IMG/VR virus record: IMGVR_UViG_2703718827_000002
Location: 1 to 50,082 of that record
DNA from: a virus
Lineage: Duplodnaviria; Heunggongvirae; Uroviricota; Caudoviricetes
Reading direction: 5' to 3' (one strand)
Length of the DNA stretch: 50,082 nucleotides
In this document: one piece after another, positions 6,966-15,150 of the stretch
Position numbering within the stretch: position 1 is the stretch's first letter
Layout: every line of letters begins with the position of its first letter
Program-made: the position numbers and the translations under genes
Notes under the pieces: generated by a model
Seen by the model: only the letters and a program-made list of their open reading frames with translations
Databases searched by the model: none
What the model was told of the DNA's origin: nothing

Positions 6966-7181
6966 ATGAATGACAGTATCCTGCTTACCAGTGACGTACT
7001 GGCTCGCTATAAGATTTCCCGGAGCACTCTGTATTTCTGGAGCACCCCGGAGCGAATGCCTGCTGGCTTCACCTGCCCTTTCCCCAAACCAACAATCCCC
7101 GGCAACCCAAAACGCTGGAGAGAGTCGGAGATCGTTTCGTGGGAAATGCAGGTCAACGCCTCTAAAGCTGATACCCAATAA
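6966..7181 (+). CDS. AlpA-family excisionase / phage regulatory protein
   Basis: 71 aa; LARYKISRSTLYFW helix-turn-helix typical of AlpA/Xis-like proteins; convergent with and overlapping the 3' end of the integrase. Confidence 0.6.
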   Translation: MNDSILLTSDVLARYKISRSTLYFWSTPERMPAGFTCPFPKPTIPGNPKRWRESEIVSWEMQVNASKADTQ

Positions 7182-8343
7182 TGCTCTGCAGGTGATTCTG
7201 CCAAATACCCAACCACTCGCGCTGGTCATCCATATAGTCGTGCAGGTTGTATCTGGCCATCACCCCACCCATCTGATGACCAAGCAGCTTTTCAATAACA
7301 TGCGGTGGCGCGCCAAGTTCTGACAACCTGGTTGCAACGGTGCGCCTCAGGTCATGCAGAGACCACTGTTTCATGTCTGTCTTTCTGATCACCTGCATGG
7401 AATAGGTCGAGACTAGGGCCTGAGTAGGTGGAATGTCTTCTTTATCTCGGAACTGAGCCGGTGTTAAAACGTGCTTAGTGACCGAACCTCTTTTATGCTC
7501 CTGAAGCAGCCTGATCGCCACTTCAGGCAATGCCCTCCTGATCGTCTTCCCTGTTTTGTAATCCTCAGCCGGTACCGTCCAGGTCTTTTCATTAAAGTTG
7601 TACCAGTCCCAGCGCGATTTCCTTATTTCTGCAGCCCTGCACCCAGTCAGGAGCATGAACCGTATAACAAGTTGCTGTGATGGAGGGAGCGCGAAAAGTG
7701 TATCCCAAACCACTTTGATCTCTTCGTCGGAGAGTCGCCTCTCCTTCATCTTCGCTGCAATACCAACGTCTGATCTGCGCAAGGATTCAAGCGGGTTGTT
7801 TTTAATTACCCCTCGGTTATGGCAGAACCGGAACGCGCGCTTCATTAATGACAGCATCTCACCAGTAATAACCGAACGCCCCATCTCGTCGAACACATCA
7901 AGCCAGTTAGCCTTGAACGTCTGATCAACCATCGCCCTGCCAATGCGCGGGCTAATGTGCTTCTGAAAGCTCCTGGTATTGGCATCGATTTTGATCAGAC
8001 CCTCGGGAATGCAGTAATGCTTTACCCAGTACTCATACGCCTGGTCAACCGTTAGCGCCTCTATCCTTTCTGCTTTCTCAACCAGAACCTTCTGGCGTGG
8101 ATCGTAACCCTCACTCAGCCAGGCGCGAAACTGCTGCCTGCGGTCTCTTGCCTGCGCTAATGAATAGGCTGGGTATTCACCTATACTGAGTTGCACCGGC
8201 TTACCCTGCCAGCGATAACGGTAGAAGAAAGTTACGCCACCAGTTATGCTTAACCTGACATTAAGCCCGTTTGAATCTGAGAGAACTTCCACACTCTCTC
8301 TGCGCTTACCAAGCGCCTTACGAAGTTTTGTATCTGTGAGCAT
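7162..8343 (-). CDS. int: Tyrosine integrase (P4-type)
   Basis: C-terminal catalytic region with HDLRRT...LLGH...Y; N-terminal MLTDTKLRKA typical of P4-like integrases; ATG at 8343 with AGGGG RBS (track start 8352 is GTG). Confidence 0.85.
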   Translation of the reverse strand: MLTDTKLRKALGKRRESVEVLSDSNGLNVRLSITGGVTFFYRYRWQGKPVQLSIGEYPAYSLAQARDRRQQFRAWLSEGYDPRQKVLVEKAERIEALTVDQAYEYWVKHYCIPEGLIKIDANTRSFQKHISPRIGRAMVDQTFKANWLDVFDEMGRSVITGEMLSLMKRAFRFCHNRGVIKNNPLESLRRSDVGIAAKMKERRLSDEEIKVVWDTLFALPPSQQLVIRFMLLTGCRAAEIRKSRWDWYNFNEKTWTVPAEDYKTGKTIRRALPEVAIRLLQEHKRGSVTKHVLTPAQFRDKEDIPPTQALVSTYSMQVIRKTDMKQWSLHDLRRTVATRLSELGAPPHVIEKLLGHQMGGVMARYNLHDYMDDQREWLGIWQNHLQSIIGYQL

Positions 8344-8645: not shown

Positions 8646-9044
8646 ATGTCTACAACACATAACGTCCCTCAGGGCGATCTTGTTTTACGTACTTTAGCCA
8701 TGCCCGCCGATACCAATGCCAATGGTGACATCTTTGGTGGTTGGTTAATGTCACAAATGGATATTGGCGGCGCTATTCTGGCAAAAGAAATTGCCCACGG
8801 TCGCGTAGTGACTGTGCGGGTTGAAGGAATGACTTTCTTACGGCCGGTTGCGGTCGGCGATGTGGTGTGCTGCTATGCACGCTGTGTCCAGAAAGGGACG
8901 ACATCGGTCAGCATTAATATTGAAGTGTGGGTGAAAAAAGTAGCGTCTGAACCAATTGGGCAACGCTATAAAGCGACAGAAGCATTATTTAAGTATGTCG
9001 CGGTTGATCCTGAAGGAAAACCTCGCGCCTTACCTGTTGAGTAA
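8646..9044 (+). CDS. yciA: Acyl-CoA thioesterase YciA
   Basis: 132-aa product matches recalled E. coli YciA along its length. Confidence 0.85.
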   Translation: MSTTHNVPQGDLVLRTLAMPADTNANGDIFGGWLMSQMDIGGAILAKEIAHGRVVTVRVEGMTFLRPVAVGDVVCCYARCVQKGTTSVSINIEVWVKKVASEPIGQRYKATEALFKYVAVDPEGKPRALPVE

Positions 9045-9047
9045 TAG

Positions 9048-9080
9048 TCAAAAGCCTCCGGTCGGAGGCTTTTGACTTTC
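9048..9080. terminator. Bidirectional terminator between convergent yciA and tonB
   Basis: Long inverted repeat TCAAAAGCCTCCG / CGGAGGCTTTTGA with A/T runs on both sides. Confidence 0.7.
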
Positions 9081-9083
9081 TGC

Positions 9084-9803
9084 TTACTGAATTTCGGTGG
9101 TGCCGTTAATTTTAAACAGGATATTCACCACAATCCCACTGCCTGGCTTACCCGGCTCATAACGCCATCTGCGCATCGCATTTTTCACCTCACGCTCAAA
9201 CATGTTCGCAGGCTTGGCTGAGAGGATTTGTACGTTATCCACGCGACCATCCGGCGTAACGTCAAATTTAACTTTAACCTGCCCTTCAATGCGCAATGCC
9301 TGTGCTCGTGCCGGATACTGCGGCTGATTACGGCTTAATGCGCGTGGTCCTGAAGCCACACTGGTAACCGGCTTGCTGGTTGCAGCCGTTGCTGTACTTG
9401 ATGTCAGGCGTGCCGGTGCCGTATTTTCAAACGGTGATGCCGGACGCGACTCTACGGGTTTGACATCGCGTTTTGGCTGCTCCTGTACCTTTTTCACCGG
9501 CTTCGGTTTTGGCTTAGGTTTCGGCTTCGGCTTTTCAATGACCACCGGTGCTTCTTTTGGCGGTTCGGGGATCGGCTCAGGTTCCGGTTCTGGCTCTACC
9601 ACCGGCTCCGGTGGCGGCTGAACGGCTTGTGGCGGTTCGAGATCAGCAGGCGTAACCATCGTGACAGAAATCGGCTGCGCAGGCGCAGGTAGTTCAATAA
9701 CCTGATGTACCGAGGTATAGAGCAGACCCGCCACAACAGCACCATGAATGCAGACCGAAAGTAACGTCGGCCAGGGGAAGCGGCGAGGTAAATCAAGGGT
9801 CAT
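9084..9803 (-). CDS. tonB: TonB energy-transducing protein
   Basis: MTLDLPRRFPWPTLLSV..., (EP)n and (KP)n repeats, C-terminal domain; 239 aa from ATG at 9803 (track ORF extends upstream to 9854). Confidence 0.9.
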   Translation of the reverse strand: MTLDLPRRFPWPTLLSVCIHGAVVAGLLYTSVHQVIELPAPAQPISVTMVTPADLEPPQAVQPPPEPVVEPEPEPEPIPEPPKEAPVVIEKPKPKPKPKPKPVKKVQEQPKRDVKPVESRPASPFENTAPARLTSSTATAATSKPVTSVASGPRALSRNQPQYPARAQALRIEGQVKVKFDVTPDGRVDNVQILSAKPANMFEREVKNAMRRWRYEPGKPGSGIVVNILFKINGTTEIQ

Positions 9804-10026
9804 TGAAGTCATAATCATTTCAGTAGAAAAACCAGGTCTCGATTTTAAATGCAAATAGCAATCATATTCAATAAGGCAAGACGATCAGGATCAGTGAAAA
9901 TGTCATTTTTGGCGTAATTACCCTTACTTTATGCATGGCCTTAACAAAGACATCATCTTTCCGTTGCAGATCTTCGCCCTTTCAAATAACGTACTTTACA
10001 ACTTTCCCGAACAAGGAGTTGTGCCC

Positions 10027-10323
10027 GTGTTGTATGTTATTTACGCTCAAGACAAAGCTGATAGCCTCGAAAAACGCCTTTCCGTTCGTCCGGCACATTT
10101 AGCACGTTTACAGTTACTGCATGATGAAGGTCGTTTGTTGACAGCTGGTCCAATGCCAGCGGTAGACAGTAACGATCCAGGGGCTGCGGGATTTACTGGC
10201 TCAACCGTTATTGCTGAATTTGAATCGCTGGAAGCAGCTCAGGCCTGGGCCGATGCTGACCCGTACGTAGCGGCAGGAGTCTATGAACACGTTTCAGTGA
10301 AACCATTTAAGAAAGTGTTCTAA
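10027..10323 (+). CDS. yciI: YciI-like protein
   Basis: 98-aa product from GTG start matching the recalled yciI neighbour of tonB; track ORF 9931..10323 extends upstream. Confidence 0.7.
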
Positions 10324-10387
10324 TTTATTAGAAATTTGCACTTAAATCAAAAAGTTACGGACAATTCAACCACCAATCAATAAATTA

Positions 10388-10441: not shown

Positions 10442-10990
10442 TCAGCTAGCTGGAAACTTTTTATACAGAGTTGAGAGCCCTACTCCATACGTTTTTGATA
10501 CGCTTTGTCGTGATTCACCGGTTGCCATCCGCTCCCCCATTTCCCGCCATTGCTCATCCGTGAACTTAGGCCTGCGACCACCAACTCGCCCTTTTGCCCT
10601 GGCTACGGCCAGCCCTGCTAAGGTACGTTCGCTATTAAGATCAGATTCATATTGTGCTGCGGAAAGGATGTTACGAAAGTTATAGCGGCCGCTGGCTGTT
10701 TTGAGATCCACGCCATCGGTAATACTGCGGAAGTTGATACCCTTTTCCTGTAACTGCTGGAACATCAACAGCGCATGCAGAACGTTGCGGCCTATCCTGT
10801 CCAGCTTCCAGACCACCAGTTCATCCCCCGGCTGCATAGTGGCGATCAGCCGTTTTAGAACCGGCCGATTCGATTTCCTCCCGCTGGCATGCTCTTCAAA
10901 AATTTTCTCACAACCCGCTGACTTGAGCGCCGTTAGTTGCAATTCAGTGTCCTGGTGGTTTGTTGATACTCGGGCATAACCGTAAATCAT
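10442..10990 (-). CDS. Serine recombinase, Hin/Gin/Pin-type DNA invertase
   Basis: MIYGYARVSTNHQD...VVWKLDRIGR...C-terminal HTH GLSTLYKK; 182 aa; typical resolvase/invertase catalytic domain. Confidence 0.85.
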   Translation of the reverse strand: MIYGYARVSTNHQDTELQLTALKSAGCEKIFEEHASGRKSNRPVLKRLIATMQPGDELVVWKLDRIGRNVLHALLMFQQLQEKGINFRSITDGVDLKTASGRYNFRNILSAAQYESDLNSERTLAGLAVARAKGRVGGRRPKFTDEQWREMGERMATGESRQSVSKTYGVGLSTLYKKFPAS

Positions 10991-11194
10991 GAGTGCTTCT
11001 CCTGTTGTAAAAACAGGAGAAGAGGCGAAATATCACCTGATTCAGAAAAATATTTGAAAGGTTGGTTTGGGAGAAGCGGCAAAACGGGATGTGGGAACAG
11101 GGGAAAATCAGATACCGGATATGGCTTTTTTTGCCAGTGGTGATGGATGGATGAAATTACCCAACGGTAAAATCCTGCAATATGGTCGAGGTGC

Positions 11195-11418
11195 GGTTAC
11201 GCCGCCGAGGTATCGATACAATTGTGTTATGTGGGATCTCGACCAATATCGGTGTTGAATCCACCGCCCGCAATGCCTGGGAACTTGGCTTTAATCTGGT
11301 GATTGCCGAAGACGCCTGTAGTGCCGCCAGCGCCGAGCAACACAATAACAGCATTAATCATATCTACCCGCGCATCGCCCGTGTGCGTAGCGTGGAAGAG
11401 ATCCTTCACGCGTTATGA
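11195..11418 (+). pseudogene. yecD: 3' fragment of isochorismatase-family gene yecD
   Basis: Only the C-terminal ~75 codons ([18 protein letters not shown]...RVRSVEEIL) are present; the upstream in-frame sequence is unrelated; stop overlaps the yecE start. Confidence 0.6.
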
Positions 11419-11520
11419 TTTACATCGGTCTGCCGCAATGGTCGCATCCTAAATGGGTGCGGTTGGGGATCACCAGCCTTGAAGAGTATGCCCGTCACTT
11501 TAACTGCGTGACGCGGGCAT
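11415..11520 (+). pseudogene. yecE: 5' fragment of yecE, truncated at a prophage junction
   Basis: [32 protein letters not shown] matches the recalled YecE N-terminus for about 35 codons, then diverges into AT-rich phage-end sequence. Confidence 0.6.
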
Positions 11521-11690: not shown

Positions 11691-12012
11691 TCACGTCTTC
11701 AAGTCGTCTATATCCATAGCACACCGAGTTACATTCTTGCATCCGGGGTGTCGACAATACCTACTTTATTGAGTGTGCGAGAATTACCAGGAACCTTTCC
11801 ACAATGTAGTAGTCTAATAGTCGAATCCATCTAACATTAAGAAGCGTTATGATCACTATCCTCTCATTGATATCTTCTGTAATAGTCACTCTATGTATCA
11901 TGGTGTTCGCTACAGTAAAGGTAGGGATTGGTTTGTCTAACAATCCAGACAGAAATGATAATTAACCTCAACCACGTAACCCCACTTCATACTTCACTTA
12001 ACAGTGATGTGC

Positions 12013-12402
12013 TCACATCACCGGGCAATCATCAAACTCTGCATTCCTGGCGTCATTGATGATGTAAGTAAGCACCCCAAATACAGCGGGTGCAGAACTG
12101 TAACCGCCATCATCTACTGGCAGCGCCTCCTTTCTCCCGTTCTCCAGATTAACGAGGTGGGGTTGAGGATGTGTCCGATATCGCTTGATCCTAAATTCTC
12201 CGTCTATCGCGCAGATCAGCAGCGAGCCATCACAGGCTGAAAGTGAGGCATCAACAACAAGCAGCGCCCCCTGAATTATCCCTTCCCTGAAATGTGAACG
12301 CGATGCACGCATGAAATAAGTCGCTGCGGGCTGGCTGATTAACTGCTGATCGAGGGAGATTCGTGTTTCAACATAATCTGCAGCAGGTGAAGGAAAGCCC
12401 AT
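12013..12402 (-). CDS. UmuD'-like protein (HumD-like, lacks the UmuD N-terminal autocleavage segment)
   Basis: Begins MGFPSPAADYVE, matching the UmuD' N-terminus after the Cys24-Gly25 cleavage site; AAGGAG RBS before ATG 12402; no umuC partner in window. Confidence 0.65.
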   Translation of the reverse strand: MGFPSPAADYVETRISLDQQLISQPAATYFMRASRSHFREGIIQGALLVVDASLSACDGSLLICAIDGEFRIKRYRTHPQPHLVNLENGRKEALPVDDGGYSSAPAVFGVLTYIINDARNAEFDDCPVM

Positions 12403-12490
12403 GATCTGCACTCCTTTCACTGTTTTTATATACAGTAGTTTTAATGTGAGTGCAGATCAATGTGGAGACACCTATCAATACCGCCAGGAG

Positions 12491-12784
12491 TTAAAGGGCG
12501 GCGACAAAATACACGGCGGTGCAGGCCAGAACCGGAACGAGCCAGTCCAGCAGGCTGGGCAGATTCCATACGCGCAAGGAGAACCCGCCCCACCACGGCA
12601 TATTGGCCCGTTTTCCGCCGCCGAACTGTGCGATCCAGCGATACTCTGCCTGGGTGTGCTCGCGGGCTATAAACCACATGCAGCCTATCGCGCCGCCAGC
12701 ACCCCACATCCCAGAAACCAGTCCGACAGCGCATTGAAGGGTTACGGCTATGGCAGCGTGTACAAACGGAGAAAAATCAGCCAT
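12491..12784 (-). CDS. Small membrane protein (97 aa)
   Basis: ATG at 12784 overlaps the tailspike stop; hydrophobic segments with Gly/Trp-rich motif. Confidence 0.45.
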   Translation of the reverse strand: MADFSPFVHAAIAVTLQCAVGLVSGMWGAGGAIGCMWFIAREHTQAEYRWIAQFGGGKRANMPWWGGFSLRVWNLPSLLDWLVPVLACTAVYFVAAL

Positions 12785-15113
12785 GGATTGCTCCCTCCAG
12801 CGCCTCAACACGCTTTAACAACCGCGCATAATTGCGGCGCTGAAGCTCCGCCTCAAGCGCGAAGGCTTCTTCATAACGAATACCATATTTAGAACCAGCC
12901 TTCCTCGCGGGTGTGATAACTTCTGAATAAGCAGCACTTCCTGGCTGAACCAGATTCCCGTTAGCATCATAAAGATCTGGCGTTGCTTCATAATGCTGAA
13001 CTACTTCCCCCTGATCTCCCCATTCGTCATAGCAGGCGAATCCGAACTCGAAGGCATCAAGACCATAACGCGCAAATGCCTCAACAGCACGCTGGGCAAC
13101 AATGCCAAAATGCCACCTCGCGTCTTCACCTTTCTCTTCCACCCTGTCCAGAAATTTATATTGGCACCATTTTACTTCCGACCACGCATCCAGCATTGCG
13201 TCAGAAATCTCTAATGGGGAAGTTTTGGAACGTTCATCAGAAGTTACTGTGAAAGCGGTCTGGGTAAATCCACCGGACCATGCAGCGCCCGATACTCCGC
13301 AACTATAGGCGTTCGTTGTGGATGGCCGGATTGTTTTGGTGACCACCTCCCTGAATGTTGACTCCATGATCGCGTCATTTGCCACCCCGTCAGCACCACC
13401 GATAAAACGCAGAACTCCGCTGGCTGTCGTGGTATCCAGACCAGTATGCACACGCAACTGCCTGACCCCAGCCATGCCGGGTCTTGCGAGTTTAATATCT
13501 CCAGTAAGGAATGCGTTATTGTCAGAATCCAGCAACCAGTATTTGGTATTAGTGCCGTTATCAACGATGTCATTAGCCAGGGTCATGCCAATGCGCTGAT
13601 TACCAAATACCTGGTTGTTAACTGCACCGGTCGCTATCACTACACCGCGAGTTAATCCACTTGAAATAGGGTTAGAAATTGTATTATTGGATGCAGATCG
13701 TGTAGCTGACGTATTCCGTCTCAGTCGGGTATGAGTTGCATCTTTTGTGAACCCGGTGAGCAGGACATCATTCGATGAAAGGACGTTTTCATTCGAGCAA
13801 ATATCGAACGCAACGTACGGTTTGCTTTCATCCCCTGGCTTGTTATAGACGATACAGAAGTTATTGGCGATCTTGCAGTGGTTGCTTCCTAATCCTGTTC
13901 CCTCGCCAAGTTCAACCGCTGAAATTGAAGTGTTGAAGTGGTTACCGAGGACGAAAATCATATTCCCGCCGGTATCATGGGAAACGATACCTCGCTGTCC
14001 GGCAATGATATGGTTAAACGCCACCGTGACACCTTCGGCTCCACTTGTAAAATCGAGGAAGTCCAGGAAATCACTTGCGCAGCCGTTCGTGAAATTAATA
14101 TCCCTCGATTGGTTCGTTAATCGTATACAGCAATTGGTTGGTACAGCATCAAGGCCACTCATGGAGCAGTGATCCATAAACACCTGGCTTGCTTTATCCA
14201 GGTGCACACAGCAGTCCCAACCAAAGGCTCCAGTTTCGTCAGTAGCAAAAAGAACGTCCGTAAGTTTCAGCTGTTCGCCGTATTTAGCCGTGTGTGTCCC
14301 GGTAAATTTCAGCGCGGTAGCATTCCGGTTTCCCCTGGTGCGTAAAGACGTATTAACAATCCGCATCGCTTTGCGGGTGCCGGATATCGAGGAGTTATCG
14401 ACAACGATACCGAGCCCTGCTTCGAATATAATCCCTGTCTGGCCCTGCCCTAAGCCAAAGACATCTGAAATAAACGCAGTAAGGGTTATGTTGCTCGCAC
14501 AGGTATACAGACGCGATAATTTTACGCCGACCCCCATGGCTTTTGCTGCACTAAATGCGTCGATGAGAGCCTGGGTATCAGCAGCCGAAATGGTATCCAG
14601 AGCGCCGTACATTTCAGGCGATACGAACGGAGTTTCTTTGTAAACGTTTGACTGCCTGATCCCAACAAGCCCCGCACCACTGGACGCGGCCAGTTCCTGG
14701 CGCAAAGCTGCATCTCCAACGCTGACAAAATGAACAGCATCATTTGCCCAGGATGCTGCGTCATTACCAGTAGTGGTGTACGGGATGCTGGTTGCTGCAG
14801 TTAGTTTCCAGAGCTCATCCTGATAACGAATGAGCTCGTTATAGTCAGTGATTGTCAAAGGTCCATCGGTGTATTCACCAATAACCTTGTACCCCGAACT
14901 TTGAATAAAATTATTAAACCGCTGCTGCTGGTTGAGCAACTGAGCTGAAAACTCTTGCTCCATGCCCCAGAATGTTTTTCGACTTTTACCAAAACGATCC
15001 AACCAAATTAGCTGCGTAATATCGTTTACAGCAAAGTCCATGTTCTGGGCATTATCGAAAAGGTCCTTCGGATCCATGGACCCTATCGGGTTATTCGTGG
15101 CGTATGTGGTCAT
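12777..15113 (-). CDS. Tailspike / side tail fibre with C-terminal intramolecular chaperone (peptidase S74-like) domain
   Basis: C-terminal SDERSKTSPLEISDAMLDAW...HFGIVAQRAVEAF matches the S74 chaperone signature; central region has beta-helix-like repeats; ATG 15113 with GGAG RBS (track start 15128 sits in the terminator). Confidence 0.7.
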   Translation of the reverse strand: MTTYATNNPIGSMDPKDLFDNAQNMDFAVNDITQLIWLDRFGKSRKTFWGMEQEFSAQLLNQQQRFNNFIQSSGYKVIGEYTDGPLTITDYNELIRYQDELWKLTAATSIPYTTTGNDAASWANDAVHFVSVGDAALRQELAASSGAGLVGIRQSNVYKETPFVSPEMYGALDTISAADTQALIDAFSAAKAMGVGVKLSRLYTCASNITLTAFISDVFGLGQGQTGIIFEAGLGIVVDNSSISGTRKAMRIVNTSLRTRGNRNATALKFTGTHTAKYGEQLKLTDVLFATDETGAFGWDCCVHLDKASQVFMDHCSMSGLDAVPTNCCIRLTNQSRDINFTNGCASDFLDFLDFTSGAEGVTVAFNHIIAGQRGIVSHDTGGNMIFVLGNHFNTSISAVELGEGTGLGSNHCKIANNFCIVYNKPGDESKPYVAFDICSNENVLSSNDVLLTGFTKDATHTRLRRNTSATRSASNNTISNPISSGLTRGVVIATGAVNNQVFGNQRIGMTLANDIVDNGTNTKYWLLDSDNNAFLTGDIKLARPGMAGVRQLRVHTGLDTTTASGVLRFIGGADGVANDAIMESTFREVVTKTIRPSTTNAYSCGVSGAAWSGGFTQTAFTVTSDERSKTSPLEISDAMLDAWSEVKWCQYKFLDRVEEKGEDARWHFGIVAQRAVEAFARYGLDAFEFGFACYDEWGDQGEVVQHYEATPDLYDANGNLVQPGSAAYSEVITPARKAGSKYGIRYEEAFALEAELQRRNYARLLKRVEALEGAIHG

Positions 15114-15127
15114 GCTCGCTCCGGGCA

Positions 15128-15150
15128 TAAAAAAACCCGCCGAAGCGGGT
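15128..15150 (-). terminator. Rho-independent terminator between the J-like gene and the tailspike
   Basis: On - strand: CCCGC-TTCG-GCGGG followed by TTTTTTT. Confidence 0.65.

Follow-up and report, generated by a model that had tools for sequence, protein, structure and literature searches.

We identify the gene at positions 12013..12402 on the minus strand of the DNA analyzed here (50,082 nucleotides; hereinafter, the window) as an intact prophage humD of the P1 HumD family, which, judging from the family-model match, the identity with the P1 protein, the predicted fold and the dN/dS values, encodes a UmuD′ that is made ready-cut. The interpretation that we favor, with a probability of roughly three in four, is that the product is a lysogen-borne, LexA-controlled UmuD′ look-alike that needs no processing and joins the host UmuC as a Pol V-like enzyme. 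The family is already known and humD is named in public annotation, so that the gene as such is ordinary; the present copy adds one more context.

An intact gene for a ready-cut UmuD′

The open reading frame starts with the ATG at 12402 and ends with a stop codon at 12013-12015 (minus strand), encoding a product of 129 amino acids with the N-terminal sequence MGFPSPAADYVE. A Shine-Dalgarno element, AGGAG, read directly from the sequence at 12411..12415 (minus strand), is located 8 nt 5′ of this ATG and is kept in six independent contexts. The in-frame GTG at 12420, upstream of the ATG, falls within the LexA box described below; because of this placement and the fitting Shine-Dalgarno spacing, we assign the start to the ATG at 12402. 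In RefSeq, some humD copies are called as 148-aa 'S24 family peptidase' proteins from an upstream ATG (L002 6614-7060; L018 3621-4067), a reading that runs through the LexA box; this longer start is probably wrong.

The product matches the NCBIfam equivalog model NF051876 ("HumD family translesion DNA polymerase") over model positions 1-129 of 129, with 219.6 bits against a cut-off of 120 (E=9e-66), whereas the score with the UmuD model NF007621 (89.5 bits) is under the cut-off of 110, and the match to the LexA model TIGR00498 (32 bits vs a cut-off of 111) is confined to the C-terminal half of that model. The identity of the protein as a LexA/CI-type repressor was considered and rejected: all 129 amino acids are accounted for by the S24 domain, and there is no N-terminal DNA-binding domain. 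The older database name 'LexA family transcriptional regulator', attached to some HumD copies, is misleading in the same respect. The prophage protein is 72% identical to P1 HumD across 129 aa (E=3e-60), and a sequence search of solved structures retrieved UmuD′ chains as the best matches (1umu, E=7e-23). Thus, when aligned with UmuD and P1 HumD, the protein shows similarity that spans its full length and is far above chance, as opposed to being limited to a few residues.

Residue 2 of HumD, a Gly, pairs with Gly25 of UmuD (M-G-F-P-S-P-A vs G25-F-P-S-P-A), so that the initiator Met alone precedes this Gly, and both the N-terminal arm and the Cys/Ala-Gly cleavage site are missing. The claim of the first-pass annotation of this DNA that the product begins at the post-cleavage N-terminus of UmuD accordingly stands, with an upstream start excluded. 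The allele of E. coli Nissle 1917 is 95% identical and differs by 33 synonymous and 7 non-synonymous changes, giving a dN/dS of 0.05; against P1 humD, the value is 0.12. Purifying selection therefore acts on humD, and these values rule out a fragment in decay.

Structural modeling points in the same direction. Single-sequence AlphaFold gave a pLDDT of 39, and a model based on an alignment of 74 sequences was used in its place, with a pLDDT of 72 overall and approximately 80 in the core. A Foldseek search with this model returned, as the top matches, 1umu, 8gmt (UmuD on the RecA filament) and 1ay9, with a probability of 1.0 and TM scores of 0.76-0.77; the model therefore matches the UmuD′-type S24 fold. 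The earlier proposal of a UmuD′ homologue of the P1 HumD type is borne out by the agreement between the family model, the identity to the P1 protein and the fold.

Compared with E. coli UmuD′, the accessory subunit of Pol V (PDB 1umu, 1ay9, 1i4v), HumD is alike in fold (TM 0.77) and in its first, post-cut residue, with a sequence identity of 41% in the MAFFT alignment and of 36-37% to 1umu/1ay9 in the Foldseek alignments. Unlike UmuD′, which is produced via RecA-stimulated cleavage, HumD is translated directly, its gene forms no operon with umuC, and its counterpart of the GDSM motif is degenerate. HumD further carries an insertion at aa 95-105, and its C-terminus is extended by 12 aa. The closest characterized relative, P1 HumD (AAQ14073), shares the length of 129 aa, the MGFPSPAADYVE start, the tail EFDDCPV(I/M) and the lack of a umuC partner. 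Additional ready-cut proteins, namely N15 gp26, phiKO2 Gp23 and the UmuD-like proteins of HK140, HK639 and BTP1, come from temperate enterobacterial phages and are 63-69% identical to HumD; their genes are often located near attP or the tail end, but the phage backbones differ.

A LexA box within a putative umuD-like promoter

Immediately 5′ of humD, a LexA box, TACTGTATATAAAAACAGTG in the minus-strand reading, occupies positions 12418..12437 (minus strand). In a consensus scan, this is the sole site in the window with at most 3 mismatches from the consensus (chance expectation 0.00), and it is identical in 19 of 20 positions to the box located 5′ of K-12 umuD. The homology extends beyond the operator: between the humD upstream region (12418-12480) and the K-12 umuD upstream region (L006 1185-1250), 46 of the 63 aligned positions are identical, with the same hexamers at the same spacing. 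The putative humD promoter (12432..12460, minus strand) consists of a -35 element, TTGATC (12455-12460), a 17-nt spacer and a -10 element, TACTGT (12432-12437), which overlaps the LexA box. A strict sigma-70 consensus scan of the upstream region did not call a promoter, so that promoter activity is assigned here by homology to the K-12 umuD region.

Operator, Shine-Dalgarno element and ATG are conserved in front of humD genes that adjoin four tailspike or tail modules of different kinds. In P1, a LexA site is annotated at the equivalent position, about 16-20 nt 5′ of the humD start, and humD has been described as LexA-regulated (PMC9603915). Given the location of the LexA box in a umuD-homologous promoter, humD is very probably SOS-induced. 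The homology of the promoter-operator region with the K-12 umuD upstream region further suggests that humD derives from umuD by deletion of codons 2-24, with the promoter and the operator retained. The LexA box had gone unmentioned in the first-pass annotation; its presence strengthens the idea that the protein acts during the SOS response.

A mobile cassette next to a fossil att junction

The window corresponds to the full length of a draft contig (GCA_001575785.1, LONM01000010.1; L015) that spans two related lambdoid prophages separated by the host genes yciA, tonB and yciI (8646-10323). One prophage ends with an integrase gene (7162-8343), and the other, which carries humD, starts at 10325. 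Both ends of the contig lie in a phage early/immunity region, where the assembly probably broke at a repeat that is shared. The possibility that the contig represents a circular or permuted phage was rejected, both a terminal overlap and a long internal repeat being absent.

The host yciI ends at 10323 and the current end of the humD prophage is at 10324/10325, next to which the gene for a Pin-like DNA invertase (10442..10990, minus strand; Pfam Resolvase and HTH_7) marks the true left end of this prophage. Further inside, the truncated remnant of a tail-fibre gene (11067-11187) joins, at 11187/11188, a piece of host yecD-yecE′, comprising the last 231 bp of yecD and the first 96 bp of yecE (11188..11510, plus strand; 323 bp, 96% identical to K-12). 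The yecE-type att junction thus formed, at 11510, is located inside the prophage. A chromosomal inversion of 640 kb joining yciI to yecD was considered as the origin of this arrangement and dropped, as the same junction is found in a compact yciI-kch prophage of strain 22F46.

The block that consists of yecE′, a ynaM-like ORF and humD is found at the genuine yecE site of quite different prophages, namely those of Nissle 1917, G3/10 and MEI4O1-23, and the same block with the same host scrap lies inside yciI-kch prophages in 69 complete E. coli genomes. Because the block lies inside yciI-kch prophages here and in those 69 genomes, the att-proximal end next to humD is a fossil. From this distribution, the humD cassette is seen to have moved between phages, originating from a yecE-integrated phage. 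The first-pass annotation had placed humD between the tailspike and the att-proximal end of the prophage; as regards this end it was mistaken, since the junction at 11510 is not the current boundary, the true end being at 10324/10325 beside yciI.

The family is common. DNA similar to humD is present in 838 of 5426 complete E. coli genomes, at 709 plasmid and 193 chromosomal places, the plasmid places being P1-like as judged from those among the matches listed. In an assembly collection, 328 blocks list the identical protein of 129 aa, and a copy with 99% identity carries the RefSeq name "HumD family translesion DNA polymerase". In P1, a plasmid-prophage, humD is located between lxr/hot and phd-doc, whereas the present copy is a tail-end cassette of an integrated lambdoid prophage that is devoid of hot and lxr and has kept the umuDC-like promoter more fully than P1.

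Neighboring genes and the missing polymerase partner

Just as the first-pass annotation had it, no umuC is carried along with this gene: a tblastn search with K-12 UmuC across the 50-kb window returned nothing, the best match having E=0.6. Judging from gene calls and Pfam hits, the surroundings of the identical protein in 8 contexts, and those of 2 distant members of the family, also have no Y-family polymerase gene. Searches of the window for homologues of dinI, theta-like hot and lxr, as well as for the 79-aa upstream ORF of other humD cassettes, were likewise negative.

Upstream of humD in the window is a gene for a hydrophobic membrane protein of 97 aa (12491..12784, minus strand), which belongs to PHROG 1443, of unknown function, and is matched by neither Pfam nor NCBIfam models. 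The 5′ end of this gene overlaps the 3′ end of the gene for a tailspike of 783 aa with a C-terminal Peptidase_S74 chaperone domain (12777..15128, minus strand). The earlier description of a small membrane protein gene adjacent to humD and following the tailspike thus holds, except for the att-proximal end that it also invoked. The 97-aa gene follows different, unrelated tailspike genes in L010, L014, the present contig and L016, and is missing where humD adjoins dinI; it was therefore rejected as a HumD partner, given that it co-varies with tailspikes, not with humD. On the opposite side, between humD and the fossil att junction, lies a 38-aa ORF of the YnaM/YnfT family (11849..11965, plus strand; NCBIfam NF041477, 45 bits against a cut-off of 35), which is annotated at the same position in RefSeq genomes, as it is at other prophage ends.

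Among the cassettes compared, variable DNA begins just 5′ of the humD promoter region and consists of a tailspike with the 97-aa gene, a divergent dinI or the 79-aa ORF. The 79-aa ORF overlaps or abuts the humD start in several contexts, in an arrangement indicative of translational coupling (L001 7003-7242; L019 3762-4001; L020 3756-3995), and is also found with members of the humD clade that are merely ~47% identical; it may be a conserved partner gene of humD. In prophages of the Mu-like and other types, that of Nissle 1917 among them, a gene of the dinI family is located back to back with humD (L002 7082-7324; L011 and L012 5680-5922; L018 4089-4331), and the humD-dinI intergenic region carries a LexA-box-like site. 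The pairing of dinI, which encodes a regulator of the RecA filament, with a pre-cut UmuD′ may be functional.

Decay of the Ser/Lys catalytic pair

In the alignments, codons 33-38 of humD (12289..12306, minus strand), encoding ASRSHF, are the degenerate counterpart of the ASGDSM motif of UmuD, with one residue deleted, such that the G-D-S-M of UmuD is replaced by S-R-S-H. In P1 HumD, this region reads AADSHH. The placement of the one-residue gap determines which residue occupies the nucleophile position: with HMMER and default MAFFT, the gap follows the motif and UmuD Ser60 pairs with His37, whereas with L-INS-i, applied to 96 sequences, the gap precedes the motif and Ser60 pairs with Ser36. 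The spacing of 8 residues between the Ser and the DGD motif, judged by eye in UmuD and UmuD-type sequences, favors Ser36. Because the outcome hinges on this gap, the loss of the nucleophile in HumD is not established. The second residue of the pair is unequivocal, as Lys73 (codon at 12184..12186, minus strand), the counterpart of UmuD Lys97, is aligned with it in every alignment made. Of the earlier statements on this region, the alteration of the serine motif is confirmed, with the identity of the nucleophile depending on the aligner as described, and the retained Lys is indeed found within EFRIKRY.

The motif around ASRSHF is not conserved in the ready-cut clade. Among representatives clustered at 50% identity, the 33 proteins that start directly at Gly have Ser in the Ser60 column in 7 cases, Lys in the Lys97 column in 15, and both in 4; the corresponding numbers for the 63 proteins with an N-terminal arm are 49, 52 and 47. 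With both residues kept in so much smaller a share of the ready-cut representatives, the Ser/Lys pair is not under clade-wide selection. The catalytic pair is not known to be required for anything beyond the processing of UmuD. By these counts, the pair is dispensable once the protein is made pre-cut and decays in the ready-cut clade.

A C-terminal tail resembling the tip of SSB

The HumD C-terminus, INDARNAEFDDCPVM (12016-12060, aa 115-129), is conserved and specific to the ready-cut clade. It ends in an acidic-aromatic stretch, EFDDCPVM, encoded by codons 122-129 (12016..12039, minus strand), which the alignments show to be clade-specific: the pattern ND-x-R-x-x-E-F-D-D-x-P-hydrophobic is present in the ready-cut representatives with an intact C-terminus and in 0 of the 63 N-extended UmuD-type representatives. 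In the structural model, residues 126-129 have low confidence.

The tip of K-12 SSB, read from the K-12 sequence, is DFDDDIPF, and some ready-cut members terminate in EFDDTPF or EFHDNLPF. The SSB C-terminus (SSB-Ct, DDDIPF) and the HumD tail are alike in combining an acidic stretch with Phe, Pro and a hydrophobic last residue at a flexible end. They are unlike in that the Pro is shifted by one position in most HumD family members, and the last residue is Met, Ile or Val, not Phe. We take this likeness, which may be a coincidence, as a lead and not as a result. SSB-Ct serves as a docking peptide and is conserved (PMC5872125); it is bound by Pol IV, and an interaction of Pol V with SSB has been reported as well (PMC3401449). 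With this in mind, we put forward, as a doubtful proposition suggested by the sequence comparisons, that in the ready-cut clade the loss of the arm, the decay of the Ser/Lys pair and the gain of the tail went together, and that the tail mimics the SSB tip, making HumD something other than a plain copy of UmuD′. Should the tail dock in the pockets that accept SSB-Ct (UmuC, Pol IV, chi, RecO, ExoI and others), Pol V would be delivered to SSB-coated gaps by a new route; alternatively, HumD would, during the SOS response, compete for the partners of SSB. Together, the tail and the insertion at aa 95-105, both lacking in UmuD′, hint at additional or different partners of HumD. In this family, new aspects might be limited to the tail that resembles the SSB tip and to the decay of the Ser/Lys pair, as we found no discussion of either in the literature accessible to us.

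Discussion

The P1 HumD family is said to have been first described, together with the idea of a pre-activated UmuD′, by McLenigan et al. in 1999, in J Bacteriol 181:7005, where P1 HumD reportedly complemented well only from a high-copy plasmid, native expression being poor. Among the ready-cut UmuD′-like proteins named above, none other than P1 HumD is known to us to have been tested experimentally. The annotation of the P1 record (AAQ14073) states that HumD 'functionally complements E. coli UmuD′', and HumD has been characterized as an already activated, shorter UmuD (PMC7092418).

Under the reading that we prefer, in which the prophage contributes a LexA-controlled, pre-cut subunit to the host polymerase, the host LexA in a resting lysogen would repress humD through the umuDC-type operator that overlaps the -10 element. 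Upon DNA damage, this repression would be lifted and HumD would be translated ready-cut. HumD would then dimerize and pair with the host UmuC and RecA-ATP, yielding a Pol V-like lesion-bypass polymerase, and would thereby circumvent the slow RecA-dependent cleavage of UmuD to UmuD′ that normally delays error-prone synthesis. The predicted outcome is the replication of damaged DNA of the host or of the induced phage at the cost of mutations. The capacity of HumD to dimerize, to bind UmuC and the RecA filament, and to promote SOS mutagenesis is extrapolated here from what is known of P1 HumD and of UmuD′/Pol V. Given the reportedly poor expression and high-copy dependence of the P1 protein, the natural role of HumD may not be bulk mutagenesis.

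The most durable of the alternatives, albeit an unlikely one, is that HumD is mainly a modulator that tunes SOS signalling, prophage induction or recombination, acting as an uncleavable look-alike of UmuD, LexA or CI in the groove of the RecA filament, through mixed dimers with UmuD/UmuD′, or by binding Pol IV. The similarity of the HumD fold to filament-bound UmuD in 8gmt, the absence of the cleavage site combined with the clade-wide dispensability of the Ser/Lys pair, and the back-to-back location of humD and dinI in many other prophages are all compatible with such a role, as is the binding and regulation of Pol IV by UmuD/UmuD′, reported in work cited in PMC3401449. However, the P1 record has HumD complementing UmuD′, the umuDC-type promoter suggests a timing and a role like those of umuD, and nothing in the present sequence analysis indicates an inhibitory activity.

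UmuD-like proteins have been described to undergo intermolecular cleavage, which lends some sense to the notion that HumD has remained an active S24 peptidase whose Ser36 and Lys73 cleave a partner in trans, such as the host UmuD within a mixed dimer. The L-INS-i alignment and the Ser-to-DGD spacing, by which Ser36 and Lys73 match UmuD Ser60 and Lys97, fit this notion, as does the occurrence of Ser or Thr followed by His at this position in the 12 close relatives inspected. Nevertheless, we deem it highly improbable, considering that the G-D-S-M context is gone, that HMMER and default MAFFT place His in the Ser60 column, and that Ser and Lys are both present in 4 of the 33 ready-cut representatives against 47 of the 63 N-extended ones.

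Finally, the possibility, raised in the first-pass annotation, that the ORF is a functionless, decaying pseudogene of 5′-truncated umuD, for which the missing first 23 umuD codons and the umuDC-homologous promoter make a deletion origin plausible, is contradicted by the selection and conservation data to the point of exclusion, namely by the dN/dS of 0.05-0.12, the intact product that matches a curated family model from end to end, the conserved start codon, Shine-Dalgarno element and operator, the 328 assembly blocks with the identical protein and the presence of humD-like DNA in 838 of 5426 complete E. coli genomes.

If HumD indeed joins the host UmuC as proposed, a pre-activated UmuD′ encoded by a prophage could allow lysogens, among them the probiotic Nissle 1917 with its 95%-identical allele, to begin error-prone bypass without the RecA-dependent delay. 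Such earlier bypass would bear on mutation rates and on survival under DNA-damaging antibiotics.
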